64,000 nucleotides of DNA from Malacoraja senta. Lineage: Eukaryota. The translations under genes and the position numbers were made by a program. The notes beneath the pieces were generated by a model that worked only from the letters and a program-made list of their open reading frames with translations, did no database searches and was not told where the DNA came from. Shown in pieces: positions 1-61,891 of this stretch (its first letter is position 1; each line of letters starts with the position of its first letter). Location of the stretch: NCBI GenBank assembly GCA_038087875.1, contig CM075989.1:930001-994000 (forward strand). Reading direction: 5' to 3'.

Positions 1-1395
1 TTCTAGTTTTTGTATCTACTGCCCGACGGAGGACAAAAATGCGTGTTTTTTTTTAAAAGATATTGAAGATGGTTGTGAAAGATTGCAGCAGGATCTGGAT
101 CGATTGGTCAGGGGGGCTGAGGAATGGTTGGTGGAATGTAATACAGAGAAGTGTGAGGTTTTGCATTTTGGGACGTCTAACAAGGGCAAGACCAAACAGC
201 TAATGGTAGGCATCTGCGGAGTGTTGTGGAGCAGATGGATCTGGGAGTGTGGATGCATGGTTCCTTGAAGGTCGAGTCGCACGGAGATCAAGTGGTCAAA
301 GAGGCATTTGGAACATTGGCCTTCATCAGTCAGAGTATTGAGTATAGAAGTTGGGAGGTCGTGTTGCAGTTGTATAAGACGTTGGTAAGACTGCATTTAG
401 AATGCAGACACAAATGCTGGAGAAACTCAGCGGGTGAGGCAGCATCTATGGAGCGAAGGAAATAGGCAACGTTTCGGGCCGAAACTCTTCTTCAGACTGA
501 TGTGAGGGTGGGGAGGGGGGGAGGGGGGGCTCCGCATTTAGGATATAGTGTTCAGTTCTGAGCACTGTGTATTAGGAAATAAATTGTCAAGCATGAAAAG
601 GTTCAGCGAAGATTTACGAGGATGTTGCCAGCAGTAGAGGGTGTGAGCTATAGGGAGAGGTTGAGTAGGCTGTGTCTCTATTCCTTGGAACGTAGGAGGA
701 TGAGAGGTGATCTTATTAGAGGTGTATAAAATCATGAGCGGAACAGATCGGAGATGCACAAAGACTCATGTCCAGAGTAGGGGAATCGAGGACCACAGGA
801 CATAGGTTCAAGGTGAAGGGGGAAAAAATAATAGGACACTTTTTCACACAAAGGGTGGTGGGTGTAAGGAACTGGCTGCCAGAAGAGATAGTTGAGGCTG
901 GGATTATCCCAACGTTTAAGATCCCAATCTCTGCATCAGAGGGCGGTGGAGGCAGGTTATCTGGATGCTTTCAAGAGGGAGCTAGATAGGGCTCTTAAAA
1001 ATAGCGGAGTCAGGGGATATGGGGAGAAGGCAGGAACGGGGTACTGATTGGGGATGATCGGTCATGATCACATTGAATGACGGTGCTGGCTCGAAGGGCC
1101 GAATGGCTTACTCCTACACCTATTGTCTATTGTCTATTTTTTAAGGAACAAGTAGACAGGTACATGGATAAACACAAAAGCTGGAGTAACTCAGCGGGAC
1201 AGGCAGCATGTCTGGAGAGAAGGAATGGGTGACGTTTCAGGTCGAGACCCTTCTTCAGACATGGATAGGACAGGTTTGGAGGAATATGGACCAAGCGCAG
1301 GCAGGTGATACTAATGTAGCTGGGACATGTTGGCTGGTGTGGGCATGTTGGGAGGAACAGCTTGTTTCCACACTGTATCACTCTATGACTCTATG
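1..1395 (+). mobile_element. Patchwork of decayed CR1 LINE 3' fragments, with a younger CR1 3' end (about 925-1138) and Penelope-type mini-units nested inside
   Basis: ORF pieces LQQDLDRL..KCEVLHFG, YKTLVRLHLEC and FFTQRVVGVRNWLP are CR1 RT/C-terminal motifs; tails are (ctattgt)n and (ctatga)n. Confidence 0.85.
1171..1258 (-). mobile_element. 88-bp Penelope pLTR-derived insertion containing a minimal hammerhead-like motif
   Basis: Minus strand reads CTGAAGAAGGGTCTCGACCTGAAACGTC; flanked by the direct repeat ACATGGATA (1162-1170 and 1259-1267). Confidence 0.75.
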
Positions 1396-3931
1396 ACTAA
1401 GAGGGTATTTCATCAGGGTGAAATTGGTCCGTGATTATGTTGGCTGCTTTCTGAGGCAGCATGTAGATGGAGTGGATGGATGGGTGTCTGGTCTGCGTGA
1501 TGGAATTGGCCACGTCCACAACTCGTTGCAATTTCTTGACTTCTTGAGCTGACCTGCTGGCCAACTAAGCTGTGATGCGGCCAGATAGGATACTTCCTGC
1601 AACCGTCTAAGTTGGTAAGAGTAATTGGAGAGGTGCCAATTGTCTTCTGACGAAGTAGAGGATTTAATGTGCTTGACCTTACTTGATGTAAGACTATCAA
1701 CAAAAGTCATTTTTTGGATGCAGAAAGTAGTTCGCCAGACAGACTCAGCAGACGATGCAAACATTCCAAATTGAAATTGTTAAATGAATTGAATGGAGCA
1801 GAGCATGAACATTCCAGAACTTGATCAACATTTTGTACCGATAGAACAACACTTCCCCATCCTGCAGAATCAGGCATCTCTCACACGGACTCAACAACCC
1901 GGTTATCTCCGTTGCACGGGAAACACTTTTGACATGGTGATTCAGACTTATGCAGATAAGTCTGAAACTGGGAAATGTGAAGCGAAGTCCGCATTTTACC
2001 ACAAATGCCACCAGATGAGACTAGAAATGGAACCTACTGAACGGTTCCTGCACATTAATTAAATCTTCCAAGTTCCAGATATCTTCAGCTCAATGAAGGT
2101 AAAACCAGTATCGATAATCATTGCTCGACAAAGTTGAGTCCAAAACCATTATTTGTTTGCATGTGGTTCTACCACAATCAGATCAGGCAAAAGAGGATGT
2201 CTTTATGGACCCACGCAAGAGTCTCTGCATAAACAGTTGAATCCTTTGTGGAACTCATAGATTCATTGAGTCATACAGTATTGAAACGTCCAATGGCCCA
2301 ACTTGCCCATGCCGACCAAGGTGTCCCATCTTAGTTAGTTTCAGTTGCCTGCTTGTAGCCCATATCCCTGTAAACCTTTCCTATCCTTATGCCAGTCGAA
2401 GTGTCTTTTAAATACGTTTACAGTGCCAGCCACTACTACCTCATTTGCAAGCTCGTTCCATAGAGCCACTACCCTTTGTGCAAAAAAGTTATCCCTCAGT
2501 TCCTATTAAATAATGCCCATCTCTGTGTCGTTTGGTTTTTGATTCCCTTACCCTGGGTAAAAAGACTTGGCATCTATTCACCTCATGATTTCAAACACAT
2601 CTACAAGATTGTCGCTCAACCTCTTGTGCTCCAAGGAATAACACGTTCGCTCGCCCAAATTCATCCTGTAGCTCAGGCCCTCAAGTCCTGACAACATTCT
2701 CACCAATCTTCTCTTCATTTTTTTTTTGCTTAATAACATCCTTCCTATAGAATGGTGACCAGAACTGAACACGTGCTCAAAATGTGGCCTCAACAATGCC
2801 ATGTACAACTATAACATAACGTCCTACTTCTACATTGAAAATCCTGACTGATGAAGGCTAATGTACTGAAAGTCTTATTTACTACCCGTGGAATTACCTT
2901 CCTCGAACTGTGTACCTTTATTCTTGGTTACTTCTGCTTAACAACACCACCCATGCCCCTACAACTCGCTGACAACGCCCTGTCATGGTGTAACTTCCCA
3001 AAATGCAGCACCTCAGAATTATCTGCATTAAACTCCATTGACCATACCGCAGGCGTCTTGCCCAGCTGATCAGGAGACGGCTCTAGTTTTCAAAACCACC
3101 TTCACTATGTATGATACCAACTACTTTAGTGTCATCTGCAAACTTACTAATCATGATGTGTACATTCTCATCCAAATCGCTGATATAAACCACAAACAGC
3201 AATGGGCCCAGCACTGATCGACGAGGCGCATCACTTGTCACAGGCCACCAGTCCAAAAACAACCACCTGCTTGCTTTCATGAAGCTAATTCTATATCTAT
3301 TTAGCGAGCTCTCCCTGGATCGCACGCAATCTAACTTTACTACCATGCCAAACCTTATCAAATACATTGCTGAGCTCCATAGTGACAACGTCTACAGCCC
3401 TGTCCTTCAGGTTACTTTCTCATAAAACGCAACCAATTACATAAAACGCGAAGTTCCACTTACAAAACGTTGCTGATTATCCCTAATCAGTCCTAGTCTA
3501 TCGCAACACATATATATCTCATCCCCCCACCCCCAATCCTCTCCAGTAGCTGACCGACCACATGTTTTCGGCTCATTGATCTATAGTTTCCCGGTTTCTT
3601 CTTGCAGCCCCTCTTAAACAGCGTCCATGAGCCAACCTTGAGACATTCGGCGCCTCACCGTGTCTAAGGATGATTCATATATCTGTGCCAGAACACTCGC
3701 AATTTCTTCTCTAGCTTCCCACAGCATCGTCGGACATATCCAATCCGGCCCGTGAGATTTATCTATCTTGAACTAACCATGTTGATTTCGTACAATATAA
3801 TCTGAAATGGCTATAATCTTCCATGAATGTTTTTATTCCTGGGCCATGCTGCAGCGTTTGAAAATCATATATTTGATAGTGTGTCATTTTGAGGGTATCT
3901 GTGAGTTTATTTCCTCGGCATGAACATATGT
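1262..3931. repeat. Duplicated block, copy 1 (GPCR upstream region, including an old minus-strand CR1 at about 2260-3770)
   Basis: Colinear and highly similar to 58535-61891, including shared junctions between different repeats and non-repeat sequence. Confidence 0.95.
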
Positions 3932-26370: not shown

Positions 26371-26831
26371 AGTAGGGGTTTAATTCCACTTCGGGCCCAA
26401 CTGCCCAAGTGATTCTCTCCCTTGTCGGTGGGTCAAACGGCCACCACTCCACTCGAGCAGTTCCCAAGAGAGAATACACAAAAGGGGTTCCCCTGGGTTC
26501 TAGACCTCGGAAATATGGTGGGATATGACAAAGGGTTGACTTGACCAGAGTGTGCTGATGAGAGAAAACAGAAACCAAGACGGACTCAAAGCAAGTCTAA
26601 AATTTACAGGCTTTATTGAACAAATGAGAAATCGAATCTCACCAACTCTACATAATACGTGACTAAACTTATGCTTTAAACTAAGACTATGGAAAGAAAA
26701 TTATCGGGCATGTCGTAAAAACTTACTTTACACAATTTTAATTACAGATACACCCCCTTTCCTCTTCTTCTCTCAACGTCTATCCTATTTCGGGAATTTC
26801 ACCAGGTCGTCTGGGGTACTTACAGCTAGAT
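26371..26831 (-). mobile_element. 3' LTR of the loki-like provirus, R/U5 part
   Basis: Homologous to 47851-48329 of the solo LTR; AATAAA on the minus strand near 26612-26617. Confidence 0.85.
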
Positions 26832-32720: not shown

Positions 32721-33034
32721 ACCTGGATGGGCTCCCATTGTCCCAATGGATGGGTCATCCACGAGGGTGATTGTCTTGCTGCTGGGCTGTTTACCCCCGT
32801 CTGCTGAGGCTCGGTTCCTTTCTTCCTCGGTCCTCTCCGTCCCGGCCTTTCCTGTTCACACCATTCGCATAGTCATGTAATGCCCAGGCCCACAGACAGG
32901 TTTTAAACTGGTTCTTCCTTTGTGGATTGGGATTTTTTCCTTTGCAGCCAGCAAGTCTGTTTTAAAAATGTCCATGGTCCTCATCCCCGAGTTCTTCCAT
33001 AATCTTGGGGAGGATTTGTCCCCAATAACTTACA
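32721..33034 (-). mobile_element. 3' LTR of the loki-like provirus, U3 part
   Basis: Homologous to 48400-48718 and ends AACTTACA; the minus strand has a short purine run (AGGGG) just upstream. Confidence 0.85.
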
Positions 33035-33318: not shown

Positions 33319-34606
33319 TTACAGTGCCGAGGTGTCGTTACAGCTGCATCGAGCGGCTCGATTTACCAGCTGTTGTAATTTGGCCATCCTCCTCCGCCTT
33401 TTAAATTTGCAATTAATAACATAGCAAATACACCACAATTATCATCTGGCAGATGATCAGAACATGGGACACGATGCGGACCCATACTGGAACTACGATC
33501 CAGGACTCCAGGTCCCACGAAGTTGGAGACTTGATTTCTTCGATCTCCCTGGCGATATCCAGTGTCTTTTGTTCCAGGGAGAAGAAGTGTTTGTGCGACA
33601 ACTCGACCGCCGGCAGCAACTCTTTTAATTTTTCCTTCACTGGGGGAATATCATACCCGAAATGGGCCACATAGTTAGATAAGTCCGTTACATTTTCTCG
33701 TACCGAGAAGGATGGGTAATATTCGCTGATGTGCCACATGGACTTCTGCCCTGGGTTTAAAACAGAAGCTGCTGTGTGGTATCGGGCACCACAGCTGTGA
33801 TCCATGCTGATACCGCTGGGCACTTGTGGTGACACAGTACTTCCCGCTGCGTATATACGCCACCTGTGGAGGGACATGGTCTGCCGCCATCGCCTCCATG
33901 GTACAGTTTATAGGCTGTGCCCCAACAGTCCTGAACCCACACTGAGGCCTAGCCTCGGGCCCATGTGCTGGGGACACAGGATTACCTGTGCTCCCCGGCT
34001 CCGACAACCCAAAAGGGCAATGCCTGTCACAGCTTGCTCCCTCATTATGACATAAGGCGGGACCTCCCCGTAGCGAATATGCACCCCCCCACGAACAACT
34101 CCCACGTTCTCCACTCGGTACAGAGGAGCTGGTCATGCCGAGATTCTTACGACCACTCCCATTATGGTGTGATTGGACTTTCCGCAATCCACCGGAACTG
34201 GGTAGGCCTCGGAGGCCACACAAAGCTGACAAGGACTCAAAGTGCTGTTATAAGGGTGTAGCGCTGCTAGGTGCTGGTTGCTTATCCAGGAGGGGACCCA
34301 ACCTTGCCTCAGGTCTTCCAGGTTGCTCCTCCCCTCCCCCAACGACCTCGCACCATACAGCCCACACACCTCATTCTGTGCAGCCTGATCAGATGCATTC
34401 CGGTCCTCTTTAATCAAAGCGTTTATCGTTTTTACATGTGTCTCCAATTGTGCTATGATTTATTTTAGATGTAGAGTCATTGCCACCTCTTCGTGCAGCC
34501 CCAATCCTACCACCGCATTTTTCTCCCCCAGGACCTCGTTGCCACCATCCATACAGCGGGGCTACCCATCAGGAAAACAAAGCAAAACACCTACTTGCCT
34601 CCACAT
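33319..34606 (-). pseudogene. env: env-like gene, F-type fusion glycoprotein remnant (frameshifts, internal deletion)
   Basis: Reconstructed across frames: signal-like MWRQVGVLLCF/MGSPAVWMVA; heptad IIAQLETHVKTINALIKE; NLEDLRQGWVPSWIS; Cys-rich CRSRGAQVILCP..PQCGF..INCTM..GKYCVTT..CPIPHSSFCFKP; heptad LEQKTLDIAREIEEIK; TM VWVRIVSHVLIICQMIIVVYLLC; basic tail CKFKRRRR; NxS/T sequons. Confidence 0.75.
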
Positions 34607-34890: not shown

Positions 34891-37800
34891 TCATAACTGG
34901 TCCCCATCACGCTGGGGCCACCCCTCTGGTGGGCCCACCCGTGCAGGCCAGAACTCCTCCTGTCGAGGGGCCTGACTGCCCCTCACCTCCCTTTGCTCTA
35001 CGGGGTTTCGAGATACCCCGACGTTCCCTGCGGAGACTGGGCTCCCTCCAGCCGCACTCCGTAGTGCCCTGTTTCGGCCACTCTCCTTCCCGGCCCTCCT
35101 GTGGCCGGCCCTGGCCCTAGGTTTAATCAGGGATGGAGACCACCTTACTGGGGGTTTAGTGACCCTGTTTCTCCTACGTCTGACCGGGGGTTCCCACACC
35201 AGAGGTGATACCTCCATCTCCTCTGCTTCTGCTAGTTCTGCCTCTCTTAGGCAGTCTATGGTACCTGCCTTCGGAGGGCTGGAATCAGCATCCTTCCCCG
35301 CTGCTTCCAGTCCTCGCCCTGGGACACAGCAAGCTACTTCAGGCTGACTACCTGTGGGCTCGCCTGGCTCTCCTACGGTTTCCACATCAACCCGGGTCTG
35401 TTCTTGATCCTGTTCCCTGACATGTACCCCTTTCTTGCTTTCCCCTGTGCTTGTGGGGTCGAACAATTTACACTGGTTGATGTGGAACCATTTGACTCTA
35501 CGGGGAAGCTGAATGGCATACACCATGGGACTGGCCTTGTCCACTATGTTGTATGGGCATGCATACAAGGGATCGAACACCCCTACCCTAGCATATCTCC
35601 TGACCATTACCTGGTACCCCACTGCCCACGCGCAATGCCTGCGAGGCACCAGCAGTAGCTTGTTTCTTTGGTGCTGGGCCCCCATGTTTCTGGCTACCTG
35701 CCAGTGAACCTGCCTAAGTTGTTCAAATATAACCATATAACCATATAACCATTACAGCACGGAAACAGGCCATCTCGGCCCTTCAAGTCCGCGCTGAACA
35801 ATTTTTTTTAATTTCCACCCCCCCCTTTTTTTTTTCCACTACTTCCTTCCCCCTAGTCCCATCTACCTGCAATCAGACCATACCCCTCCATTCCATTCCC
35901 GTCCATATACCCATCCAATCAATTCTTAAAGGATAAAATCGAACCTGCCTCCACCACTTCCACTGGAAGTTCATTCCACACAGCTACCACTCTCTGAGTA
36001 AAGAAGTTCCCCCTAATGTTACCCCTAAACCTCTGTCCCTTAATTCTTAAGTCATGTCCCCTTCTTTGAATCTTCCCTAATCTCGAAGGGAAAAGCTTAT
36101 CCACGTCCACTCTGTCTAACCCGCTCATAATTTTAAAGACTTCTATCAAGTCCCCTCTTAACCTTCTGCGCTCCAAAGAATAAAGACCTAACTTATTCAA
36201 CATTTCTCTGTAACTTAGTTGCTGAAACCCTGGCAACATTCTAGTAAATCTCCTCTGTACTCTCTCTATTTTGTTGACATCCTTCCTATAATTAGGCGAC
36301 CATAATAGTACTCCATACTCCAGAATTGGCCTCACCAATGCCTTGTACAATTTTAACATTACATCCCAACTTCTATATTCAATGCTCTGATTTATAAAGG
36401 CCAGCACACCAAAAGCTTTCTTTACCACCCTATCTACATGACATTCCACCTTCAGGGAACTATGCAAAGTTATTCCTTGATCCCTTTGTTCAACTGCATT
36501 CCTCAATTCGCTACCATTTACCATGTACGTCCTATTTTGATTTGTCCTGCCGAGATGTAGCACCTCACATTTATCAGCATTAAACTCCATCTGCCATCTT
36601 TCAGCCCACTCTTCCAAATGGCCTAAATCTCTCTGTAGACTTTTAAAATCTACTTCATTATCCACAACACCACCTATCTTAGTATCATCTGCATACTTAC
36701 TAATCCAATTTTCCACACCATCATCCAGATCATTGATGTACATGACAAACAACAGTGGACCCAACACAGACCCCTGAGGCACCCCACTAGTCACCGGCCT
36801 CCAACCTGACAAACACCCATCCACCATTACTCTCTGGCATCTCCCATTCAGCCACTGTTGAATCCATCTTGCTACTCCACCATTAATACCCAACAATTGA
36901 ATCTTCTTAACCAACCTTCCATGAGGAACCTTGTCAAAGGCCTTACTGAAATCCATATAGACAACATCCACTGCTTTACCCTCATCAATTTCCCTAGTAA
37001 CCTCTTCGAAATATTCAAGAAGATTAGTCAAACATGACCTTCCAGGCACAAATCCATGTTGACTGTTTCTAATCAGACCCTGCTTATCCAGATGCTTATA
37101 TATATTATCTCTAAGTATCCTTTCCATTAATTTGCACACCACTGACGTCAAACTAGCAGGTCTATAATTGCTAGGTTTACTCTTAGAACCCTTTTTAAAC
37201 AACGGAACAACATGCGCAGTACGCCAATCCTCCCGCACTATTCCCGTTTCTAATGACATTTGAAATATTTCTGTCATAGCCCCTGCTATTTCTACACTAA
37301 CTTCCCAAAGAGGCTAACTTAGCCTCTTGGCAAACTTGTCCCGGTTCACTTCCCTGAGCTGTCCCTCTTTTAAGGCTGGGACCATAACGTGCATGGGCGT
37401 TCTCATGACCCGGCCCGTCATAAGCTCATGGGGAGAGTACCCCATACTCCTGGACTGGCTGGCCCGAATCCCCATAAGGACCAGGGGTAAAACCTCCACC
37501 CTCCAGTTGGGTGAGCCCCCTGTTTCCTTCCTTATCCTTTCCTTTATTGTCCGGTTCAACTGCTCTGCCGGACCTGAGGACTGGGGGTGGTAGGCCAGAT
37601 GCCACTTGGCCTTGATGCCCAGTATTCTAAGGGTGGACTGCATGACCTGTCCCGTGAAATGGCTCCTCTGATCTGATTCCACGAACTGTGGGAGTCCCCA
37701 CCTGGTGAACACCTCCCTAACCAGGATTTTTGCCATACCCACAGCGGTGGCTGCTCTGCAAGGGAAGGCCTCTACCCATTTTGAGAACACATCCACAAGG

Positions 37801-40664
37801 ACTAAGCAGTACTTGTAACCCCCTTGAGCGGTTGGAAGGGGCCCGATGTAGTCGATTTGAATTGACTGCCATGGCCCCTCCATCCTCCTGATGTGTCCCA
37901 TAGAAACCTTCCTTTTCTGGGGGTCTGGGTTGTTTGCTGCGCAAACCAGACAGCTTGCACAAAAGTCGCGAATGTCTCCCCTGAGCCCTGGCCACCATCC
38001 TGCCATCTCTACTCGCTGCCATGTGGTCTCTGGCCCGGGGTGAACTGCCCCTGGACCCTCATGGGCTAGTTTTAAAAATTCCCTTCTGTACAGGGAAGGC
38101 ACTACCCACTTATCTCCCTTGAATAACATGCCTTCCTTTACTGATATGTCTTTACGCCCATACAGTCCCTCTATCGTCACCTGCCTGCAAATGGCTGCTG
38201 AGGCAGCCTTTAAAATGGGGTCTTGTGCCTGGACCGTGGTCAGGTCCGGGGCCAAAACCACTCCCGCACTCCCCTTTTCTCGAGGCTGCTCCCTGGCTGC
38301 AGCTACCTGTCCTTCCTCATAGGGGTCCCATGCTTTCCCACTCCTGGCTCCTTCTCTGGCCAAGCGATCCGCCCTCTGATTTCCCTCGCCTTGTGGCTCC
38401 GTTTTGGAATGGGCCTTCACCTTATGGATATATCTATCCCCGCCCTTCCCTACGGCTGCTACAATCCTCTCTAATAGGGGTTTAATGGTCAGGGGCTTCC
38501 CGTCCGATGAGGTGTACCCTCGGTGGGACCAGATGGCCAGATATTCCGTGCAGGAATTGCATGTGAACATGCTGTCCGAACATATGGTGTATGGAGGGGG
38601 GAAACGCTTGAGATGGGTGACCACGTACATTACCGCCGCCCACTCGGCCTGCTGGGTGCTTAACGTATGTGGGAGTTTAAGGGTTAGGGTTATCTCTGCC
38701 TCGGTGTCCCATATCCCACAGCCCGTGAGCTTTATGCCCTCGGACACGATACTGGACCCGTCCACGTATATTTCCCTACCAGTGGGATGTAACCCTGCTC
38801 TGTCCAAAGTCCACCTCCCATACCCCTTCCACCGAGCAATGGTGTGGCTCCCCTGGGTACACCAAATTGGCTGAGAGCTTGGGCTCACATAGCCTCTCAA
38901 CCCATAAGGCCATTTGGAAAAGGAGAAGGGTCCAGCGAGTGATCCTCACACTGCTAACGGTCCCATCCTTAATCTCACCGTCCAGCAGCATCTGGGTTGG
39001 GGTATGGTGGGTCAGTGCCCAGTATGTGGCTAGCAGGTGTCGCTCACAGTTTGAATAGGACCTTTCTACCTCTGTGAGGACTCTGGAGGAATACACCACT
39101 GGCCTTAACTTGCCGTGCCGTTCCTAGAGGAGCACTACGCTCAGGCCATCACTGCTTGCGGCTACCTCCAGGAAAAATTCCTCCCTGTAGTCGATGGCTC
39201 CCAGAGCTGGGGCCTTTTGCAGGTCCCGCTTCAAATGGATGAATGCCGACTCGCACTGCTCATCCCACTCCCACTCTACCCCTTTGCGTAGCAGCCGGAG
39301 CAGAGGTGCTGCGGTCGCGGCATAGTCCTCTATAAAGTCTCGGCAATAGCCCGTGACTCCAAGAAATGACCTTGGTACAGGGAGTTCCTGCACTGCCTGC
39401 CTTCTTGCTGTATCGATACCCCTTTCTCCGGCCCTAAGGGTCAGTCCCAAGAACTTTACCTCTTGTAACCCTATCTGTGCCATCTTGGTATTTACTTTTA
39501 AACCGCTCTTACAGAGCAGCTCCAGCAGTTCGTTTATAGGGGCCCATGTTCCTCACTGGTGTCCATGAATAGCAAAATATCATCCACATACTGGACGACC
39601 TTGTGGGGCTCAGTGAATTCCTTTAAACATTCCGCCATACATTGGTGGAAAATGCTGGGGCTATTGTGGAACCCTTGGGGAAGACAGTTCCATGTGTACT
39701 GCTGCCCCTTGAACGTGAAAACAAATTTGTACTGGTCTTCCTTCCTGACCGGGATAGACCAGAAACCGTTTGAGATGTCAAGCACCGTAAATACAGATGC
39801 AGACGCCGGAATTTCCCCTAATAGGGCTGCTACAGCTGCCACAGTTGGTGCGCAAGTCGGAATGTTCTTATTCAGGACCCTATAATCTACCGTGGCCCTC
39901 CATGAATTGTCTGGCTTCCGTACGGGCCAGAGCGGTGAGTTCACGTGGGTGGCTATGGGCCTCAAAACGCCTTGCTTAACCAGTGAACTCAGGGCGACAT
40001 CTAAGTCAGCCTCCGCTTCTCGGGGAAAACTATACTGTTTCTGCGGTCGGGACATGGGATCCCCTTCTATCCTGACCTCTGTTCCTGTGACCCTTCCACA
40101 GTCGTGCTTGTGAGTAGCGAACGTGGCCAAATTTCGCTTAACAAGGCCTTGATACTCTGTCGGGGTCTGCCTCACTAGGGCCTCTACATCGTACCCCTCT
40201 CTGGGCTTCACAACACACAGAGCCCCTCTCTCTGGTGCCCTCTCGATGACCATGACTTTCTTCTCTCTCTCAGCCCCTTCTCCTGCTATGCCCTACAAAC
40301 AGTGGTTCCTCAGGTCCACCAGGGCCTGGTGGGTCACTATAAAGTCAGCGCCTAATATCCCCTTTCCCTCCTGCTCCCAACTCATCAGTACGCACTTCCA
40401 CTGCGCCTGGAGTGCTCCTAATCGAATGGACAAGGGAACAGAGAAATACTCCGTCTTCTCGTTTCCCGTAAAACCGACAAGACTATAGGGCGCCCCACTA
40501 GATAGAGGGGATGTACGGGGATTGTCCGTGTGGACAATGGTACTGGAAGCACCTGTTTCCAGCAGGTAACTCCCGACCACATCCTGGACCTCCATCTTGA
40601 CCCAGGGTTTCCCACATGGGCCATACTCTAACGGGCATAGGAATGTGGGCTGTTTTGCTGGCAG
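34891..40664 (-). pseudogene. pol: pol: protease, RT, degenerate RNase H, second RNase H, integrase with long tail; interrupted by CR1 at 35730-37310
   Basis: LLETGAS (protease, D to E); LDISNGFW, LPQGFHNSP, YVDD; RH1 EVAASSDGLSVVL..VYSSRVLTEVERSYSNCERHLLA; RH2 YVDGSS..QQAE..SDS..KVKAH..GNQRAD; IN H..H..CxxC, QIDYIGPLP, VDVFSKW, SDQ, YHPQSSG. Confidence 0.92.
35730..37310 (-). mobile_element. 5'-truncated young CR1 LINE inserted in the integrase
   Basis: 452-aa open RT with YADD; (accatata)n tail; small inverted duplication at the 5' junction (ccaaagaggctaa/cttagcctcttgg). Confidence 0.95.
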
Positions 40665-42336
40665 TCATAAAGGTGCCGGGGGTGCGGAAACGGGCGCGCC
40701 CTGGCCTGTTGCCATGGCTATCTGTCCGGACCCTCCCGCCTTGGACTGAAATAGGCCAATAGATCTTTTACACCTATTGTTCCCGGCATGGCCGCTCCCT
40801 CCTCCGGGGCTGGGTCTGCTGTTACCGGGGTCCTATCGTCCACTGCTCTACTTGGGTTTCTGCACTCCCTCTTGTAGTGCCCGGGCTTCCCACACCCGTA
40901 GCACACCGGCCTCATCTTGGAAGAGGTCTGGCTGCCTTCCTGTTTCCACTCCCTCCTTTTGGTGGGTGGCGGTACTATACTTTGCACCTTGCCCTTAAAG
41001 GGCTTCTCCTTACTTCTCTCCCCGTTGCGATACGCAAGGTTGAGCTTCCTTTTTACCTCCGCCTCGTTAAGGTTTGGGTCCGCTGGGTCGAACCAGTGCT
41101 CGGCCTTTGCCCTAACTCGCAGGAGGCAATTCGCTACCAGAGTCTTCAGCCAGTGGGCTGTTCTCTCATCTAAATTCCGCCTATCTAAAGGCGTCCCACA
41201 CGCTCCCTCATACACTGACCACAGTCTGTCTGCGAACATGTCCAGGGACTTGGCTACCGGCTCCTTAGTCTCCCCCACCCTGGCGAAAGGACTACCCTGA
41301 TTCAACCTCGTGGCCTCCAGAACCGCCGTCTGTGCCGCTACCCATGTTTCAGGTCTCCCCCTTCCCTGGAGGTCACCGCCTTGCAAAGGTAGGAATCCAG
41401 GGTCATCAGTAGTAGCTTTACCCATTCTACCTCATCGCAATCATTTATGTCGGCCGCCTGCTGCACCTCCATAAAATACAATGACAGGTCTCCTGCCCTG
41501 GTTAACCTGGGAACATGAGCCACCATCCCCCTCAGCACGTGTGCCCCATGGGGAATGATGATATCACTCTCTATGGGCCCCCTATCTGCCTGCCCTACCG
41601 GGGGACCATATTTCCTTTGCCGTACTGGGCACATCTGCCCTACCCGGGGCTGTTGCCCCTTTACCCCCTGCTCTTCCACCATGATCGGTAACCCCACCAC
41701 CTCATGGTATGCTACACATGGCACAGATGCCGCTAACTGAGGGTGCTCTCCCACCCCTCCTTGGGCCTGTCCCTCCCCAGACAACCCAAACCCCACCTGC
41801 CGACCCGGACCTATTCTCGGCGCCTCAGGAGGCGGTCTATTCCCCTTTTCCCCTGGGGAATCATCTGCTGAGGGAAGCCCTCTGCCCCCGAGGGACCCCC
41901 CTGGTCCTACCAGGTGAACCCGTCCCCTAGTCTTCGTCAGAGTCTCCTCCAGCTGCGCTACCCTTGCCTGGCAAGGCCCGTGATCACAATCCCCTAGCTC
42001 GCTACGGGACACCATGTAAGCTGCTTGGATATCTTGGAACTATCCCTCCAGCTCCCTGTACCTCTGTGTACTCTGAGCCAGGAGTTCCTGGGCGTTCCTT
42101 TCCCTCTCCTTTGCCTCTACCACCTGGCATTGGAGGAATTCCTGGGCATTTCTGGGGGATTCCCTAGCCTGCAAGATACACTGCCTGGCTTCACTGAGTT
42201 CCTCATATAGCCCTTCCCCTACTCTAGCGCTTTCCTCAGTGCTGGCCCTAGTTTTTCTCATTTGCTCTTCTAGACTCTCTACCTGTCTCTCCATATTGGC
42301 TACCAGCTGTGATAGGCATGCTAGGCACATTGCCAT
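40665..42336 (-). pseudogene. gag: gag of the loki-like provirus (frameshifted)
   Basis: N-terminal coiled coil (ERQVESLEEQMRK..), capsid-like helical region, CCHC knuckle CYGCGKPGHYKREC, ends PVSAPPAPL-TGA. Confidence 0.8.
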
Positions 42337-42344
42337 TTCCTGCC

Positions 42345-43260
42345 TTTTATTATAACCTTTACTTTCCGTCCATTCTCCCCCTCAAATTGTAGATTAAAAC
42401 ATCATATTATGGTCACTACCTCCTAATGGCTCCTTTACCTCAAGTTCCCTTATCAAATCCAATTCATTCCACAAAACTAAATCCAGAATTGCCTACTCCC
42501 TGCTGGGCTCCAGTACAAGCTGCTCTAAGAATCCATCACGGAGGCACTCCACAAACTCTCTTTCTTGGGGTCCAGTACCAATCTGATTTTCCCAGTCTAC
42601 CTGCATGTTGAAATCTCCCATAACAACCGTAGCATTACCTTTGCGACATTAACTCTTGATTCAACTTGCACCCTATATCCACGCTACTGTCGATAACTCC
42701 CATGAGGGTATTTTTACCCTTACAATTCCTCAGTTCTATCCATACAGACTCTACATCTCCTGATTCAATGTCACCCCTCACAAGGGACTGAATTTCATTC
42801 CTCACCAACAGAGCTACCCCACCCCCCTCTGCCCACCTGTCTGTCTTTTCGATAGGACGTGTACCCTTGAAAATTCAGTTCCCAGCCCTGGTCCTCTTGC
42901 TGTCATGTCTCTGTAATTCCCACAACATCATACTTGCCAATTTCTAACTGAGCCTCAAACTCATCCAGTTTATTTCTTATACTTCGCACATTCATATACG
43001 ATACTTTAACTTCGGTATTCACCTCCCCTCTCACACCGGCCACTATTGGCCCTGACCTTATTCTCTTATCCCTTCTCGAACTTTCCTTCCCATTAATTCA
43101 CTTTATTGTTATCTGCAAACTTACTTTTCATACCTTGTACATTCTCACCCAAATTGCTGTTACAAACCACAAACACCATTGGACCCAGCACCGATCACTG
43201 AGGGACACCACGTGTCAGCCTCACCAGACCTATAAAGGTTTCTATTAATTATTTCCCCAC
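42345..43260 (-). mobile_element. Decayed CR1 fragments (APE N-terminus, then an RT piece)
   Basis: Reverse strand shows NVRSIRNK, VVGITET, GDFN and SDHN remnants. Confidence 0.8.
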
Positions 43261-44225: not shown

Positions 44226-47200
44226 GTACTGATCTCCGGATTGCTACCTGAGCCACGGGCCAAATCGGCGAGGGTACGAAAAATTAAAAAGCTGAATGCG
44301 TGGCTCAAAGACTGGTGTGGGAAAAATGGGTTTGGTTTCTTGGGCCACTGGCACCAGTACTGGGACAGGGGGGATCTGTTCTGTAAGGACGGACTTCACC
44401 TGAACGGTGCTGGGACTGGGGTCCTGGCAAATCATATAACTAGGGCAGTAGAGAGGTCTTTAAACTAAGTAGCGGGGGGGAGGTATCAAGGGGGGTAATA
44501 ACGGCAGGGGTAGAGGAAATAGAGCAGGGTATCAGTGGGGAAACGGAAAATCAAAATGTGACAGGAGGATCCAGAATGTGTGAAGATAAAGCTCTAGATG
44601 TAAAAGGGGCAAAAACAGAAAGGAAGGGTAGTAAAAATCATCTGAAAGTGCTGTATCTAAATGCACGGAGTATTCGAAATAAGATAAATGAATTAACGGT
44701 GCAATTAAGTACATATAGTTATGATATCGTGGCCATTACGGAGACATGGCTGCAAGGGGATCAGGATTGGGAGTTAAATATAGAGGGGTACTCGACAATT
44801 AGAAAAGATAGACAGGAAAGAAAGGGAGGAGGGGTGGCCCTTTTAATAAGGGAGGGAATAACGGCAATAGAGAGGAAGGATATTGCGTTGAAGGATCAGG
44901 ATAGTGAAACAGCTTGGGTACAGATAGAGAATAACAAGGGGAAAAAAACACTAGTGGGTGTAATTTATAGACCTCCAAATAGCTGTGACGCTGTTAGTCA
45001 GAACATAAATCTGCAAATAGTTGACGCATGTAAAAAGGGAACTGCTGTAATCATGGGGGACTTCAATTTTCATATTAATTGGGCAAACCAAACTGGGCAG
45101 GGTAGACTAGAGGAAGAGTTTATAGAATGTATTAGAGACGGGTTCCTAGAACAGTATGTCACAGAACCGACAAGGAGGGAGGCAATCTTGGATCTGGTCC
45201 TGTGTAATGAAGCAGGATTAATTAAAAATGTCATAGTTAGGGACTCGTTGGGAACAAGTGACCACAATATGGTCGAATTCCATATTCAAATAGAAGGGGA
45301 GCAGGTTGAAACTCAGGCTAGGGTACTTAGTCTAAATAAGGGGGATTATGAAGGTATGAGGACTGAGCTGATCAAAGTTGACTGGGATAGCAGACTCAAG
45401 AATAAGACGGTACATGAGCAGTGGTGTACGTTTAAGGATCTACTGTATAACCTTCAAGAAAAATTTATTCCTATGAAGAAAAAAAGGGGTAAGGGAAAGA
45501 ACAGTCAGCCATGGCTCAGTAAAACTATAAAGGATAGTATTCGGCTGAAGGCAAGGGCATATAAGGTAGCTAGAGATAGTGGGAGGGTAGAGGATTGGGA
45601 AGCATTTAAAGGTCAGCAAAAAATAACTAAGAGATTAATTAAGACGGGGAAAATAGACTATGAAAGGAATTTAGCGAACAACATAAAAACTAATAGTAAG
45701 AGTTTTTATAGCTATATAAAAAGAAAAAGGGTGGCTAAGGTGAACGTTGGTCCATTGGAGGGTGAGACTGGAGAGTTGTTGGTGGGGAACATGGAAATGG
45801 CAAAGGCATTAAACGAGTATTTTGTATCAGTCTTCACCATAGAAGACACAAAAAATATTCCAACGCTGGATAAACAGGGGGCGGTAGGAATGGAGGAGCT
45901 AAATACTATTAAGATCACCAAGGAGGTGGTATTAGGGAAATTAATGAGACTGAAGGAGGATAAATCCCCTGGGCCTGATGGATTACATCCAAGGGTCTTG
46001 AGGGAGATAGCGGTGGGGATTGTGGATGCATTGGTGATAATTTTCCAAAACTCCCTGGAGGCAGGAACGGTCCCAGTGGATTGGAAATTGGCCAATGTAA
46101 CACCTATATTTAAAAAAGGAAGTAAACAGAAGGCGGGTAACTATAGACCGGTTAGTCTAACATCGGTGGTGGGTAAAATGTTAGAGACAATTATTAAAGA
46201 AACACTAACGGGGCACTTGGATAGACATGACTTCATCGGACAGAACCAGCATGGTTTTGTGAAGGGGAAGTCCTGTTTAACGAATCTGCTCGAATTCTTT
46301 GAGGAAGTAACAACCCGGGTGGATAAAGGGGAACCGGTGGATGTGGTATACTTGGACTTCCAAAAGGCTTTTGACAAGGTGCCACATAAGAGACTATTGC
46401 TAAAAATAAAAAATTATGGGATTGGGGGTAATATATTAGCATGGGTAGAGGATTGGCTAACAAATAGGAAGCAGAGAGTGGGGATAAATGGTTCATACTC
46501 GGGATGGCAACCGGTAACTAGCGGGGTTCCGCAAGGGTCGGTGCTGGGACCCCAGTTGTTCACAATTTATATAAATGATTTGGAGGAGGGAACCAAGTGT
46601 AATATATCAAAATTTGCGGACGATACAAAAATGGGAGGAAAAGTAGGGGATGAGGAGGATAGGAAGAGTCTGCAAAAGGATATAGATAAGCTAGGTGAGT
46701 GGGCAACAACTTGGCAGATGAAATTTAATACTAATAAATGTGAAGTCATTCACTTTGGGAAAAAAAATGATAGGGCAAGTTATTTTCTAAATGAGGTGGA
46801 GCTGCGTTGTAATGCAACGCAAAGGGATCTAGGGGTAGTAGTACATGAATCACTAAAAGTTAGTATGCAGGTGCAGCAAGCAATCAGGAAGGCCAATGGA
46901 GTTTTGGCCTTTATTGCTAGGGGGATTGAGTATAAAAACACGGAGGTCTTGCTGCAGCTGTACACAGTATTAGTGAGACCACATTTGGAATACTGTGTAC
47001 AGTTCTGGGGTCCATACTTAAGAAAGGATGTACTGGCCCTGGAGGCAGTGCAGCGAAGGTTTACAAGATTAATTCCTGCAATGAGGGGATTGACATATGA
47101 GGAAAGGTTAAGTAGGCTGGAACTCTACTCTTTGGAGTTTAGAAGAATGAGAGGCGATCTCATTGAAACATATAAGATCGTGAGGGGCCTTCATCGGGTG

Positions 47201-47779
47201 GATGCACCGAGGATGTTCCCAATGATCGGGGAAACTAGAACTAGGGGACATAGTTGCAGAATAAGAGGGGGCTCTTTTAAAACTGAGATGAGGAAGAACT
47301 TCTTCACCCAGAGGGTGGTTAATTTATGGAATTCACTGCCCCAGGGAGCAGTGGAAGCAGAAACATTAAATATATTTAAGTCTAAAATAGATGTTTTTTT
47401 AGCTGCCAAGGGGATAAGGGGCTACGGGGAGAGGGCAGGGATATGGACCTAGGTATGGTTAGTATAGTAAGACCTGAGTGATCTCCTGGACAAGTGTCGA
47501 TCGCCTGGATTGGGGTCGGAGAGGAATTTCCCGGATTTTTTTCCCGAATTGGACCTGGGTTTTAATCCGTTTTTTTGCCTCCCCCAGGAGATCACGCGGT
47601 TCTTGGGGTGGAGAGGGGTGATAGCGATATAAAGGGGAGGGTAGTGTCTTGTGTTCTGTGTCTTGTGTCTACTGTTTGTGGGTAAGGGTGTCTGTTTAGT
47701 GTTCAGCCATGAGCGAATGGCGGTGCGGGCTCGATGGGCCTGGTGGTCTACTCTCGCGCCTACTTTCTATGTTTCTATG
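44226..47779 (+). mobile_element. Young CR1 LINE, 5'-truncated within the ORF1 esterase
   Basis: DGLHLN esterase end, complete ORF2, 3' UTR and (tttctatg)n tail. Confidence 0.95.
44558..47452 (+). CDS. Intact CR1 ORF2 (APE endonuclease and reverse transcriptase, about 964 aa; start codon uncertain)
   Basis: YLNARSI, ITETW, GDFN, LDLVL, SDHN; GPDG, DFQKAFDKVPH, GVPQGSVLGP, FADD; no stops or frameshifts. Confidence 0.93.
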   Translation: MTGGSRMCEDKALDVKGAKTERKGSKNHLKVLYLNARSIRNKINELTVQLSTYSYDIVAITETWLQGDQDWELNIEGYSTIRKDRQERKGGGVALLIREGITAIERKDIALKDQDSETAWVQIENNKGKKTLVGVIYRPPNSCDAVSQNINLQIVDACKKGTAVIMGDFNFHINWANQTGQGRLEEEFIECIRDGFLEQYVTEPTRREAILDLVLCNEAGLIKNVIVRDSLGTSDHNMVEFHIQIEGEQVETQARVLSLNKGDYEGMRTELIKVDWDSRLKNKTVHEQWCTFKDLLYNLQEKFIPMKKKRGKGKNSQPWLSKTIKDSIRLKARAYKVARDSGRVEDWEAFKGQQKITKRLIKTGKIDYERNLANNIKTNSKSFYSYIKRKRVAKVNVGPLEGETGELLVGNMEMAKALNEYFVSVFTIEDTKNIPTLDKQGAVGMEELNTIKITKEVVLGKLMRLKEDKSPGPDGLHPRVLREIAVGIVDALVIIFQNSLEAGTVPVDWKLANVTPIFKKGSKQKAGNYRPVSLTSVVGKMLETIIKETLTGHLDRHDFIGQNQHGFVKGKSCLTNLLEFFEEVTTRVDKGEPVDVVYLDFQKAFDKVPHKRLLLKIKNYGIGGNILAWVEDWLTNRKQRVGINGSYSGWQPVTSGVPQGSVLGPQLFTIYINDLEEGTKCNISKFADDTKMGGKVGDEEDRKSLQKDIDKLGEWATTWQMKFNTNKCEVIHFGKKNDRASYFLNEVELRCNATQRDLGVVVHESLKVSMQVQQAIRKANGVLAFIARGIEYKNTEVLLQLYTVLVRPHLEYCVQFWGPYLRKDVLALEAVQRRFTRLIPAMRGLTYEERLSRLELYSLEFRRMRGDLIETYKIVRGLHRVDAPRMFPMIGETRTRGHSCRIRGGSFKTEMRKNFFTQRVVNLWNSLPQGAVEAETLNIFKSKIDVFLAAKGIRGYGERAGIWT

Positions 47780-47850: not shown

Positions 47851-48718
47851 TGTAGGGGTTTTGTTCCCTTTGCTCCACTTCGGGCCCAACTGCCCGTGTG
47901 ATTCTCTCCCTTGTTGGTGGGTCAATCGGTCACCACTCCATTCGAGCGGTTCCCAAGAGAGAATACAAAAAAAAAGGGTTCCCCTGAGTTCTAGACCTCG
48001 GAATTATGGTGGGATATGATAAAAGGTTGACTTGACCAGAGCGTGCTGATGAGAGAAAACAGAAACCAAGACGGACTCAAAGCAAGTCTAAATTTACAGG
48101 CTTTATTGAACAAATGAGAAATCGAATCTCACCAACTCTACATAATACGTGACTAAACGTATGCTTTAAACTAAGACTATGGAAAGAAGATTATCGGGCA
48201 TGTCGTAAAAACTTACTTTACACAATTTTAATTACAAATGCTCCCTCCCCCCCCCTTTCCCCTTCTTCTCTCAACCTCTATCCTATTTCAGGAACTTCAC
48301 CAGGTCATCTGGGGTACTTACAGCTAGATTGATGCAGGGTCAGGAGCCGTCCAACAGAGCAGAAAAGAGAGAGAGCTCTTGCATGCCTGTCCCTTTTATA
48401 CCTGGATGGGCTCCCATTGTCCCGATGGATGGGCCATTTACGATGGCGATTGTCTTGTTGCTGCGCTATTTACCCCGTCTGCAGGGCTCGGCTCCTTCCT
48501 TTGTCTTTCCAAGATAATCTCGTTATCTCCATCCCGGCCTTTCCTGTTCTCACCATTCGCATAGTCATGTGGCTGCCCAGGCCCACAGACAGGCTTTGAA
48601 CTTGTGATCCCTTGTTTTTTTTTCCTTTTGCAGCCAGCATGTCTGTTTTAAAATGTCAATTTCCTTATACCCGAGTTCTTCCATAATCCTTTGGAGGATT
48701 TGCCCCCAATAACTTACA
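47851..48718 (-). mobile_element. Solo LTR (868 bp) of the loki-like family
   Basis: TGTAG...TTACA ends; 4-bp TSD CACC (47847-47850 and 48719-48722); minus-strand TATAAAAG near 48393-48400 and AATAAA near 48102-48107. Confidence 0.92.
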
Positions 48719-58534: not shown

Positions 58535-61500
58535 TGGATAGGACAGGTTTGGAGGAATATGGACCAAGCGCAGGCAGGTGAGACTAATGTAGCTGGGACA
58601 TGTTGGCTGGTGTGGGCATGTTGGGAGGAACAGCTTGATTCCACAATGTATCACTCTATGACTCTATGACTAAGAGGATATTTCATCAGGGTGAAATTGG
58701 TCCTTGATTATGTTGGCTGCTTTCTGAGGCAGCATGTAGATGGAGTGGATGGATGGGTGTCTGGTCTGCGTGATGGAATTGGCTCCGTCCACAACTCTCT
58801 GCAATTTCTTGACTTCTTGAGCTGACCTGCTGTCCAACTAAGCTGTGATGCGGCCAGATAGGATACTTCCTGCAACCGTCTAAGTTGGTAAGAGTAATTG
58901 GAGAGGTGCCAATCGTCTTCTGACGAAGTAGAGGATTTAATGTGCTTAACCTTACTTGATGTAAGACTATCAACAAAAGTCATTTTTTGGATGCAGAAAG
59001 TAGTTCGCCAGACAGACTCAGCAGACGATGCAAACATTCTAAAGTGGAATTGATAAATGAATTGAATGGAGCAGAGCGTCGGAGCTTGACATTCCAGAAC
59101 TTGATCAACATATTCAAGTCAAGTCAAGTTGAGTCAAGTTTCCTTTATTGTCATTCAGACCTTTCGGTCTGAACGAAATTGTGTTGCCTGCAGTCATACA
59201 CAGAACCAATAATAACAAAACATAAAATAAACACAAATTAAACATCCACCACAGTGAGTTCACCAAGCACACCCTCATTGTGATGGAGGCAAAGTCTTAG
59301 TCTCTGTCTCTTCCCTCCTTGTTCTCACTCTGCGCTGAGGCGATCGATCCAGGCCGAAGATGCCGCCCTCCAGTCCAGCGGACCTCCGTGGTGATGTCGC
59401 CGCCGCCGAAAGCCGGAACGCCGTCTCCGCTGCGAGACTGCCCGCCACAGCATCAGCTCCGGGTCCCGCAATCTCCGCTCCAGGCCGCTGGACCAGCTCC
59501 GGGTCCCGCAATCTCCGCTCCGGACCCCGCTGGACCAGCTCCAGGTCCCGTAGTCTCCGCTCCGGACCCCGCTGTATCAGCTCCAGGCCGCCGCCGAAAG
59601 CCAGAACACCGCATCAGCAAGTCGGGCCACCGCTGCCTCAGCCCCGAAGACGGCCAGCCTCTCGTTGATAAGTCCTGGCTGGCTCTGCCTCCGTAGCCTC
59701 GGGGTCGGTCGCAGGATGGAGGCCGGCAGCTCCGCCATTAGGCCTCATGGCAGACGGAGGCAGGGAAGGGGGATACGACACGAAAAAGTCGCATTCCCCC
59801 GAAGGAGGAGACAGAGGACATGTTTCTCCCCCCCTAACACAACCCAACAAACTAAAACTTAACAAAACAAGACAAAAAAAACCAACAGAAAAAGTAAAAA
59901 CAGACGGACTGCAGGCGAGCCGCACCGATAGAACAACACTTCCCCATCCTGCAGCATCAGGCATCTCTCACACGGACTGAACAACCTGGTTATCTCCGTT
60001 GCACGGGAAACACTTTTGACATTGTGATTCAGACTTATGAAGATAAGTCTGAAACTGGGAAATGTGAAGTGAAGTCCGCATTTTACCACAATTGCCACCA
60101 GATAGACTAGAAATGGAACCTACTGAATGACAATCCAACTACACAAATCCACTGAGTGTACATCACTTGCGTATCGCGGTTCCTGCACATTAATTAAATC
60201 TTCCAAGTTCCAGATATCTTCAGCTCAATGAAGGTAAAACCAGTATCGATAATCATTGCTCGACAAAGTTGAGTCCAAAACCATTATTTGTTTGCATGTG
60301 GTACTACCACAATCAGATCAGGCGAAAGAGGATGTCTTTATGGACCCACGCAAGAGTCTCTGCATAAACAGTTGAATCCAGCCACCACGACCTCCTTTGC
60401 AAGCTAGTTCCATAGAGCCACCACCATTTGAGCAAAAAAGTTGCCCCTCAGTTCCTATTAAATAATGCCCATCTCACCTTAAACCTGTGTGATTTTGTTT
60501 TTGATTCCCTTACCCTGGGTAAAAAGACTTGGCATCTATTCACCTCATGATTTCAAACACATCTATAAGATTGTCGCTCAACCTCTTGTGCTCCAAGGAA
60601 TAACACCTTCGCTTGCCCAAATTCATCCTGTAGCTCAGGCCCTCAAGTCCTGACAACATTCTCACCAATCTTCTCTTCATTTTTTTTTGCTTAATAACAT
60701 CCTTCCTATAGAATGGTGACCAGAACTGAACACGTGCTCAAAATGTTGCCTCAACAATGCCATGTACAACTATAACATAACGTCCTACTTCTACATTGAA
60801 AATCCTGACTGATGAAGGCTAATGTACTGAAAGTCTTATTTACTACCCGTGGAATTACCTTCCTCGAACTGTGTACCTTTATTCTTGGTTACTTCTGCTT
60901 AACAACACAACCCATGCCCCTACAACTCGCTGACAACGTCCTGTCATGGTGTAACTTCCCAAAATGCAGCACCTCAGAATTATCTGCATTAAACTCCATT
61001 GACCATACCGCAGGCGTCTTGCCCAGCTGATCAGGAGACGGCTCTAGTTTTGAAAACCACCTTCACTATGTATGATACCAACTACTTTAGTGTCATCTGC
61101 AAACTTACTAATCATGATGTGTACATTCTCATCCAAATGACTGATATAAACCACAAACAGCAATGGGCCCAGCACTGATCGACGAGGCGCATCACTTGTC
61201 ACATGTCACACACACAAAAACAACCACCTGCTTCCTTTCATGAAGCTAATTCTATATCCATTTAGCGAGCTCTCCCTGGATCGCACGCAATCTAACTTTA
61301 CTACCATGCCAAACCTTATCAAATACATTGCTGAGCTCCATAGTGACAACGTTACAGCCCTGTCCTTCAGGTTACTTTCTCATAAAACGCAACCAATTAC
61401 ATAAAACGCGAAGTTCCACTTACAAAACGTTGCTGATTATCCCTAATCAGTCCTAGTCTATCGCAGCACATGTATATCTCTTCCCCCCACCCCCAATCCT

Positions 61501-61891
61501 CTCCAGTAGCTGACCGACCACATGTTTTCGGCTCATTGATCTATAGTTTCCCGGTTTCTTCTTGCAGCCCCTCTTAAACAGCGACCATGAGCCAACCTTG
61601 AGACATTCGGCGCCTCACCGTGTCTAAGGATGATTCATATATCTGTGCCAGAACACCGGCAATTTCTTCTCTAGCTTCCCACAACATCGTCGGACATATC
61701 CAATCCGCCCCGTGAGATGTATCTATCTTGAACTAACCACGTTGATTTCGTACAATATAATCTGAAACGGCTATAATCTTCCATGAATGTTTTTATTCCT
61801 GGGCCATGCTGCAGCGTTTGAAAAACATATATTTGATAGTGTGTCATTTTGAGGGTATCTGTGACTTTATTTCCTCGGCAGGAACATATGT
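58535..61891. repeat. Duplicated block, copy 2 of the GPCR upstream region
   Basis: Matches 1262-3931; differs by an insertion at 59113-59923, a deletion of about 180 bp and about 50 bp of extra sequence near 60128-60175. Confidence 0.95.
59113..59923 (-). mobile_element. Non-autonomous LINE-dependent element inserted after the duplication
   Basis: Absent from copy 1 (empty site about 1830-1836); minus strand begins gcggctcgcctgcagtccgtctg and ends AATAAA plus (TTGAC)n; internal short GC tandem repeat. Confidence 0.8.

Follow-up and report, generated by a model that had tools for sequence, protein, structure and literature searches.

Results

Organisation of the locus

We analysed a window of 64,000 nucleotides of Malacoraja senta DNA (GenBank assembly GCA_038087875.1, contig CM075989.1, positions 930,001 to 994,000), which carries on its minus strand a broken provirus in the order gag, protease, reverse transcriptase (RT), tether, RNase H, integrase, env and probable 3' long terminal repeat (LTR). 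In window coordinates, the features are:

47851-48718, minus strand: solo LTR of the same family, with TGTA...TACA ends and a 4-bp duplication on both sides
40718-42381, minus strand: broken gag with a coiled coil at the N-terminus and a single CCHC knuckle; a CR1 fragment truncates its 5' end
40293-40664, minus strand: aspartic protease (PF13650 and PF13975, below the curated cut-off)
39124-40292, minus strand: RT with LPQGF and YVDD motifs, frameshift near 39540
38776-39123, minus strand: tether, i.e. a degenerate RNase H (PF17917, PF17919)
37314-38945, minus strand: RNase H and integrase (H2C2 zinc finger and core)
35731-37270, minus strand: CR1-type LINE inside the integrase, limits approximate
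35446-35724, minus strand: C-terminal SH3-like part of the integrase
34538-34606, minus strand: broken 5' remnant of env with the start codon and a probable signal peptide (from the reading; other copies diverge at 34539)
34537-34538, minus strand: deletion junction; relatives have here an Ig-like domain, an F2-like part, a furin site and a fusion peptide, all missing from the window
33962-34537, minus strand: env piece 1, heptad A, helical core, VPSWIS motif and first beta region, with stops at 34462 and 34135
33711-33953, minus strand: env piece 2 in a shifted frame, Cys-rich beta domain (profile match)
33419-33712, minus strand: env piece 3, heptad B, Trp-rich membrane-proximal stretch and TM helix (profile match)
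33319-33417, minus strand: env piece 4 in the third frame, basic cytoplasmic tail and stop
32721-33034, minus strand: probable 3' LTR, first part, 80% identical to the solo copy
26371-26831, minus strand: probable 3' LTR, second part with AATAAA, 92% identical to the solo copy

In gag, zf-CCHC scores above its cut-off, the coiled-coil matches being weak. The probable 3' LTR begins 285 bp past the env stop and is split by a LINE of the Tx1/L1 type, about 5.7 kb long; from its position we infer that it belongs to this provirus. The inserted LINE is near full-length (about 32560-26850, minus strand; ORF1 with a ZCCHC3-type domain and knuckles, endonuclease and RT), and at its insertion the LTR lacks about 70 bp including the TATA box. 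No 5' LTR of the provirus was found within the window, the solo LTR at 48718-47851 being ruled out for this role by the 4-bp duplication on both sides and by the lack of a primer-binding-like TGG start after it. The window is rich in repeats, with many CR1-type LINEs and SINEs. One CR1-type LINE (44444-47452, plus strand) has an unbroken ORF2 of 1002 codons and is thus a young copy. Downstream of the LTR lies a further gag-like remnant of another kind, which has a CCHC knuckle and is cut by a CR1 (22501-21284, minus strand); a Ty3/Gypsy-type LTR-element pol remnant lies at 56794-54842 (minus strand), and repeat copies at 1262-3692 and 58535-61652, about 58 kb apart, are 96-99% identical.

The env remnant is broken and carries an internal deletion

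A preliminary description of this DNA had listed for the env remnant a signal-like start, two heptad repeats, an L..G.VPSWIS motif, a Cys-rich block, a TM helix and a polybasic tail. All of these could be located on the minus strand between 34606 and 33319, not in one frame but spread over three frames with stops. The start codon ATG lies at 34606, and a signal-like start is plausible from the reading, its hydrophobic run continuing in the neighbouring frame. The first heptad (34507-34352) has a modest 57% of hydrophobic a/d positions, the second (33652-33521) has 77%; between them lie the motif in the form LRQGWVPSWIS (34312-34280) and the Cys-rich block (about 34030-33711), followed after the second heptad by the TM helix (about 33475-33419, 19-residue hydropathy peak 2.57) and the polybasic tail at 33417-33319 in the third frame. 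The damage comprises in-frame stops at 34564 (in the frame originally described), 34462 and 34135, three frameshifts and an internal deletion at 34537/34538. A profile built from the relatives only matches this env as three pieces, 34534-33962, 33953-33711 in another frame and 33712-33386. The similarity to the relatives is not due to chance: the alignment to the closest relative scores 376 bits, and P0016 scores 77 bits compared to 29.6 bits for the best of 100 shuffles, being covered over residues 314-702 with 22.6% identity (E 7e-17). The close relative P0041 is 78% identical to piece 1.

The suspicion that an internal deletion joins the signal peptide to the first heptad is supported by two kinds of evidence. 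The tblastn matches of all relatives begin at 34537/34534 and none before, and contigs of other copies in the runs X8 and X19 (two of four) leave the window sequence at 34536 and 34539 with loose ends of up to 255 bases; the other two runs showed no loose end at the junction among the matches listed. Loose ends on both sides of 34536/34539 indicate that other copies hold the missing part, so that the deletion is a property of the window copy or of a sub-family. Measured against P0016 and P0012 its size is about 290-340 codons. As had been noted, no furin site is visible here, RX(R/K)R being absent from the window reading; the site is present in P0003, P0007, P0012, P0013, P0016 and P0026, and both furin site and fusion peptide were found in relatives and are deleted from the window copy. 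Having lost its cleavage site and fusion peptide with about 1 kb of sequence, this copy cannot make a fusogen.

Structure and feature searches point to an F-type fusion protein

The preliminary description had proposed that the order of features matches the F1 subunit of F-type proteins rather than a gamma-type envelope. By sequence, this similarity is not detectable: the window reading has no Pfam or PDB match, 0/27 and 0/5 env relatives match either PF00523 or PF12259, and the family profile searched against the PDB returned coiled coils only (best E 0.049) and no F protein. We therefore relied on the fold of P0016, a natural full-length shark relative modelled with a 29-row alignment (mean pLDDT 58.7, pTM 0.38; residues 40-180 below 50 and the N-terminal 180 unreliable), a single-sequence model of P0003 being too poor for use (pLDDT 34.6). 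The model contains an F-like core of a helical bundle and beta domains I/II. Foldseek against the PDB listed 46 matches, all of which are paramyxo- or pneumovirus F proteins (best E 4.2e-8), and the viral structure library BFVD returned Mononegavirales and baculovirus F, foamy Env and walleye virus Env, with no snakehead retrovirus (SnRV) Env among the matches listed. An unbiased search independent of Foldseek (VIA) placed NDV F (Z 9.4, rmsd 17.9, 351 aligned), hMPV F (Z 8.0, rmsd 6.2, 272 aligned), RSV F (Z 7.7) and foamy Env (8rm0; Z 7.4, rmsd 7.0, 247 aligned) within ranks 1-7, and Nipah postfusion F gave Z 9.1 (rmsd 5.0, 270 aligned); the best rigid fits reach 5.0-5.8 A over about 270 residues. 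TM-scores are 0.25-0.28 and Z values of 7-10 lie near the stated background of the search, so that the assignment is carried by the agreement between methods and by the length of the matches. For P0041, language-model features lie nearest to the Baculo_F (0.94) and Fusion_gly (0.93) clusters, at a recognition value of 1641, which is below the level deemed reliable.

Alternatively, the long helices of a mediocre model might produce these matches spuriously, and the protein might be unrelated to F or a gamma-type envelope; we give this reading a very slim chance and regard it as already largely refuted. It would account for the failure of every sequence method to find F and for the helical bundles which, bar a few F and foamy rows, fill VIA ranks 8 and 11-50. 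Those bundles match over 60-110 residues, whereas the matches to F extend over 250-350 residues and take in the beta domains as well (model residues 188-597), and three structure libraries and an independent feature search concur. The CX6CC motif, reported missing from the start, is absent from the window reading and from 8/8 relatives (9/9 proteins). Profile or structure searches yielding a retroviral TM or no fusion-protein similarity had been named as the outcome speaking against an F-type protein; the profile searches indeed showed no F similarity, while the structure searches gave F matches and no orthoretroviral TM among those listed. The fold searches with P0016 and the features of P0041 thus support the F-type assignment, for the window env indirectly, by way of these relatives.

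As a separate observation, the best BFVD match of the P0016 model is the glycoprotein of the fish filovirus Wenling thamnaconus septentrionalis filovirus (E 2.8e-12). Together with the matches to the walleye epsilonretrovirus Env (E 1.2e-6 and 3.5e-6), this model-based result hints at F-type envelopes being more widespread among fish viruses.

Proposed working of the intact envelope

Judged by the relatives, an intact Env would consist of signal peptide, Ig-like domain, F2-like subunit, furin site, fusion peptide and heptad A, followed by the Cys-rich beta domains, heptad B, the TM helix and the basic tail. For the Ig-like domain, residues 60-200 of P0012 lie near V-set/I-set clusters in the feature search, and P0030 (V-set, E 0.045) and P0046 (Ig_3, E 0.012) give matches below the curated cut-offs. 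By analogy with F proteins, furin cleavage would prime the trimer and free the fusion peptide, the extension of heptad A would insert it into the membrane, and heptad B would zip back onto heptad A, yielding a six-helix bundle. The likely receptor-binding module, at a guess, is the Ig-like domain; according to the accessible part of PMC11468914, class Ib proteins can carry receptor modules at that place.

Env relatives and a candidate host gene in sharks

The searches yielded five and then 29 env relatives from sharks, a skate and frogs, the closest named ones coming from sharks and the skate. The view that intact copies, be they viral or domesticated, are candidate fusogens is upheld, as the search for them found full-length relatives in sharks and a frog, for which the fusogen role is predicted. 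P0016, P0038 and P0039 are full-length ORFs of 739-754 aa in Chiloscyllium, Scyliorhinus and Heterodontus (accessions of the three, in no particular order: XP_072333160, XP_067889054 and GCC29952). They represent three shark orders, are 85-88% identical to each other and form in the env tree a tight clade with short branches, placed with frog proteins and far from the clade of the window. Mobile copies of the env family in different orders reach 68-78% identity, so that 85-88% alone is no proof of domestication; judged from the sequences, the trio is a candidate for a domesticated F-type env gene. The amphibian members P0026, P0037, P0030 and P0034 comprise a Pelodytes protein of 723 aa, a Xenopus tropicalis protein of 519 aa, an X. 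laevis fragment and a protein of 749 aa; P0026 and P0037 are 53% identical, and these members could be active viruses or co-opted genes. P0011, P0014 and P0021 are gene models fusing env pieces to Niban-like, cadherin-like or pol sequence and are probably annotation artefacts. Further loci were scanned, i.e. viral contigs with a pol relative and metagenome contigs with two env relatives, and none was confirmed.

The pol genes appear to combine features of different retrovirus groups

The window RT carries the motif LPQGF, as do snakehead and foamy RTs, while PFGY is found in 22/22 of the lokiretrovirus (Loki) RTs compared (24 published) and the Loki motif is absent from the RT-match proteins inspected (14/17). 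Its best matches are a pol at 72%, frog and coelacanth pols labelled NYNRIN-like at 45-49% and the SnRV Pol at 41%, the nearest named pols of the element being those of frogs and coelacanth. The RT core is 47.6% identical to the snakehead RT compared to about 36% (by eye) for Loki-Lch, and among solved structures foamy RTs match best (133 bits, versus 89 for MLV and 75 for Ty3). In an RT tree of 15 rows, drawn open and without Loki, foamy and ERV-L rows, the window RT groups with the frog and coelacanth pols (support 82/91), with no supported join to SnRV. The integrase core is about 47% identical (by eye) to Loki-Sau versus 37.8% to SnRV; compared with an epsilon-like pol, SnRV scores 28% versus 27% for RNase H and 38% versus 36% for the integrase. 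In one frog pol from this RT group, the sequence continues into the Ig-type env start of the family (48% over 107 aa), so that the pairing of this pol with this env is not confined to the window locus.

Discussion

We consider it very probable that the locus holds a dead provirus of a multi-copy ERV family of cartilaginous fishes, whose env encodes a class Ib (paramyxovirus F-type) glycoprotein and whose pol, of a lineage common to frogs and coelacanth, joins a snakehead/foamy-like RT to a Loki/NYNRIN-like integrase. The kind of Env is already known, and on the model it would work like that of lokiretroviruses, to which the element itself need not belong. An F-type Env is no surprise in kind, since such envelopes on vertebrate LTR elements are already described in the accessible parts of PMC7947760 and PMC11468914.

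Two other placements of the virus have to be weighed against this one. If the element were a divergent lokiretrovirus (lokiortervirus), the range of that group would widen to cartilaginous fishes, and this placement would explain the tether and second RNase H in the window pol, the integrase core nearer to Loki-Sau than to SnRV, the motif order of the Loki Env, which agrees by eye, and the F-type Env, recognised here by fold and features only, PF00523 not being matched. It would also fit the NYNRIN-like label of the best named pols, NYNRIN being a synonym of CGIN1. As far as the text of PMC7947760 was accessible, the Loki integrase groups with CGIN1/NYNRIN, and a Loki screen found 0/6 cartilaginous fish genomes positive. 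The RT speaks against such a placement, with LPQGF instead of PFGY, a core nearer to snakehead than to Loki-Lch and no Loki motif in the matches inspected, as does the Loki-Xtr Env, which is without the Ig-like N-terminal extension. We regard a divergent lokiretrovirus as improbable, and RT motif and similarity suggest that the element is not a plain lokiretrovirus.

A much stronger contender, to which we give somewhat less than an even chance, is an ordinary member of the snakehead-retrovirus-like clade, the Env of which would be F-type throughout and never structurally annotated. In the accessible part of PMC4977317, SnRV-like ERVs are reported in the elephant shark and as the main ERVs of the coelacanth; as they are known there at the RT level, the window element may belong to an already described RT clade with an unannotated Env. 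The identity of the RT cores, a Gag that combines a coiled coil with a single zinc knuckle, the architecture described for SnRV in the accessible part of PMC2717909, and the walleye virus Envs among the fold matches agree with this placement. The RT tree with no supported join to SnRV, the near-equal identities of RNase H and integrase to SnRV and to an epsilon-like pol, and the lack of an SnRV Env among the 29 env matches argue against it. As regards env, an SnRV-like placement is compatible with the dead F-type provirus that we favour.

The lineage is seemingly undescribed. We found no description of its Env or of the shark gene in our search, outside of which lay much subscription literature, including a 2020 co-option survey, and bioRxiv supplements; the lineage's Env is not described in the accessible parts of PMC9040795, PMC12440569, PMC11521997, PMC13709493, bioRxiv 2024.03.17.585361, PMC2717909, PMC8278194, PMC9967133, PMC12583693 and PMC12193657. 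A survey of anamniote Env screened gamma- and beta-type Env only (bioRxiv 2021.11.23.469661, accessible part), and PMC13524379, in the part accessible, announces a separate study of vertebrates.

How retroviral Env arose is under debate. The published view preferred in the accessible part of PMC9040795 is that lokiretroviruses and canonical retroviruses acquired Env separately, and the foamy Env structures place an F-like core within canonical retroviruses (PMC11468914, accessible part). A third lineage with a canonical-type RT and an F-type Env would make an 'F-type first, gamma/beta-type later' order testable by phylogeny. A wider model, possible but as a whole doubtful, is that of an undescribed lineage in sharks, rays, coelacanth and frogs, which combines a canonical-type RT, a Loki-type integrase and an Ig-plus-F envelope, bridges lokiretroviruses and foamy/snakehead viruses with the F-type envelope being ancestral to retroviruses, and one env of which became, by domestication in the ancestor of three shark orders, an intact F-type host gene akin to a syncytin. 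All co-opted vertebrate env genes that the literature names, as far as it was accessible, are of gamma or foamy type; should an intact F-type gene indeed have been retained in different shark orders, it would be a new kind of candidate for co-option. The copy in the window, for its part, is dead.

Comparison with known systems

The following comparison uses the accessible parts of the papers cited. The lokiretrovirus Env (PMC7947760, Wang and Han) is alike in standing after pol on a vertebrate LTR element with tether and RNase H, in its similarity to paramyxo-/pneumovirus F and its RX(K/R)R site, and the integrase of the window element looks Loki-like by eye; the window lineage differs in RT motif and similarity, in the Ig-like N-terminal domain and in its cartilaginous fish hosts. 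Snakehead retrovirus and SnRV-like ERVs share the RT core (47.6%), the LPQGF motif and the Gag architecture, and the clade is alike in its hosts, being reported from sharks, coelacanth and amphibians, whereas RNase H and integrase of SnRV are not specifically close to those of the window; for the Env type of this clade, the searched literature, as far as accessible, holds no description. Errantivirus/Ty3-gypsy F-type Env (PMC13524379) and baculovirus F belong to the same fusogen superfamily, the former being found in invertebrate Metaviridae, in contrast to the retrovirus-like pol of the window. Foamy virus Env, a class Ib fusogen (PMC11468914), has the same F-like core (Z 7.4 to 8rm0), and no solved structures match the window RT better than foamy RTs do. 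Foamy Gag is without a CCHC knuckle (PMC2717909), whereas the window Gag has one, and the foamy receptor domain is inserted between the subunits (PMC11468914), whereas the extra domain of the window family is N-terminal and Ig-like.
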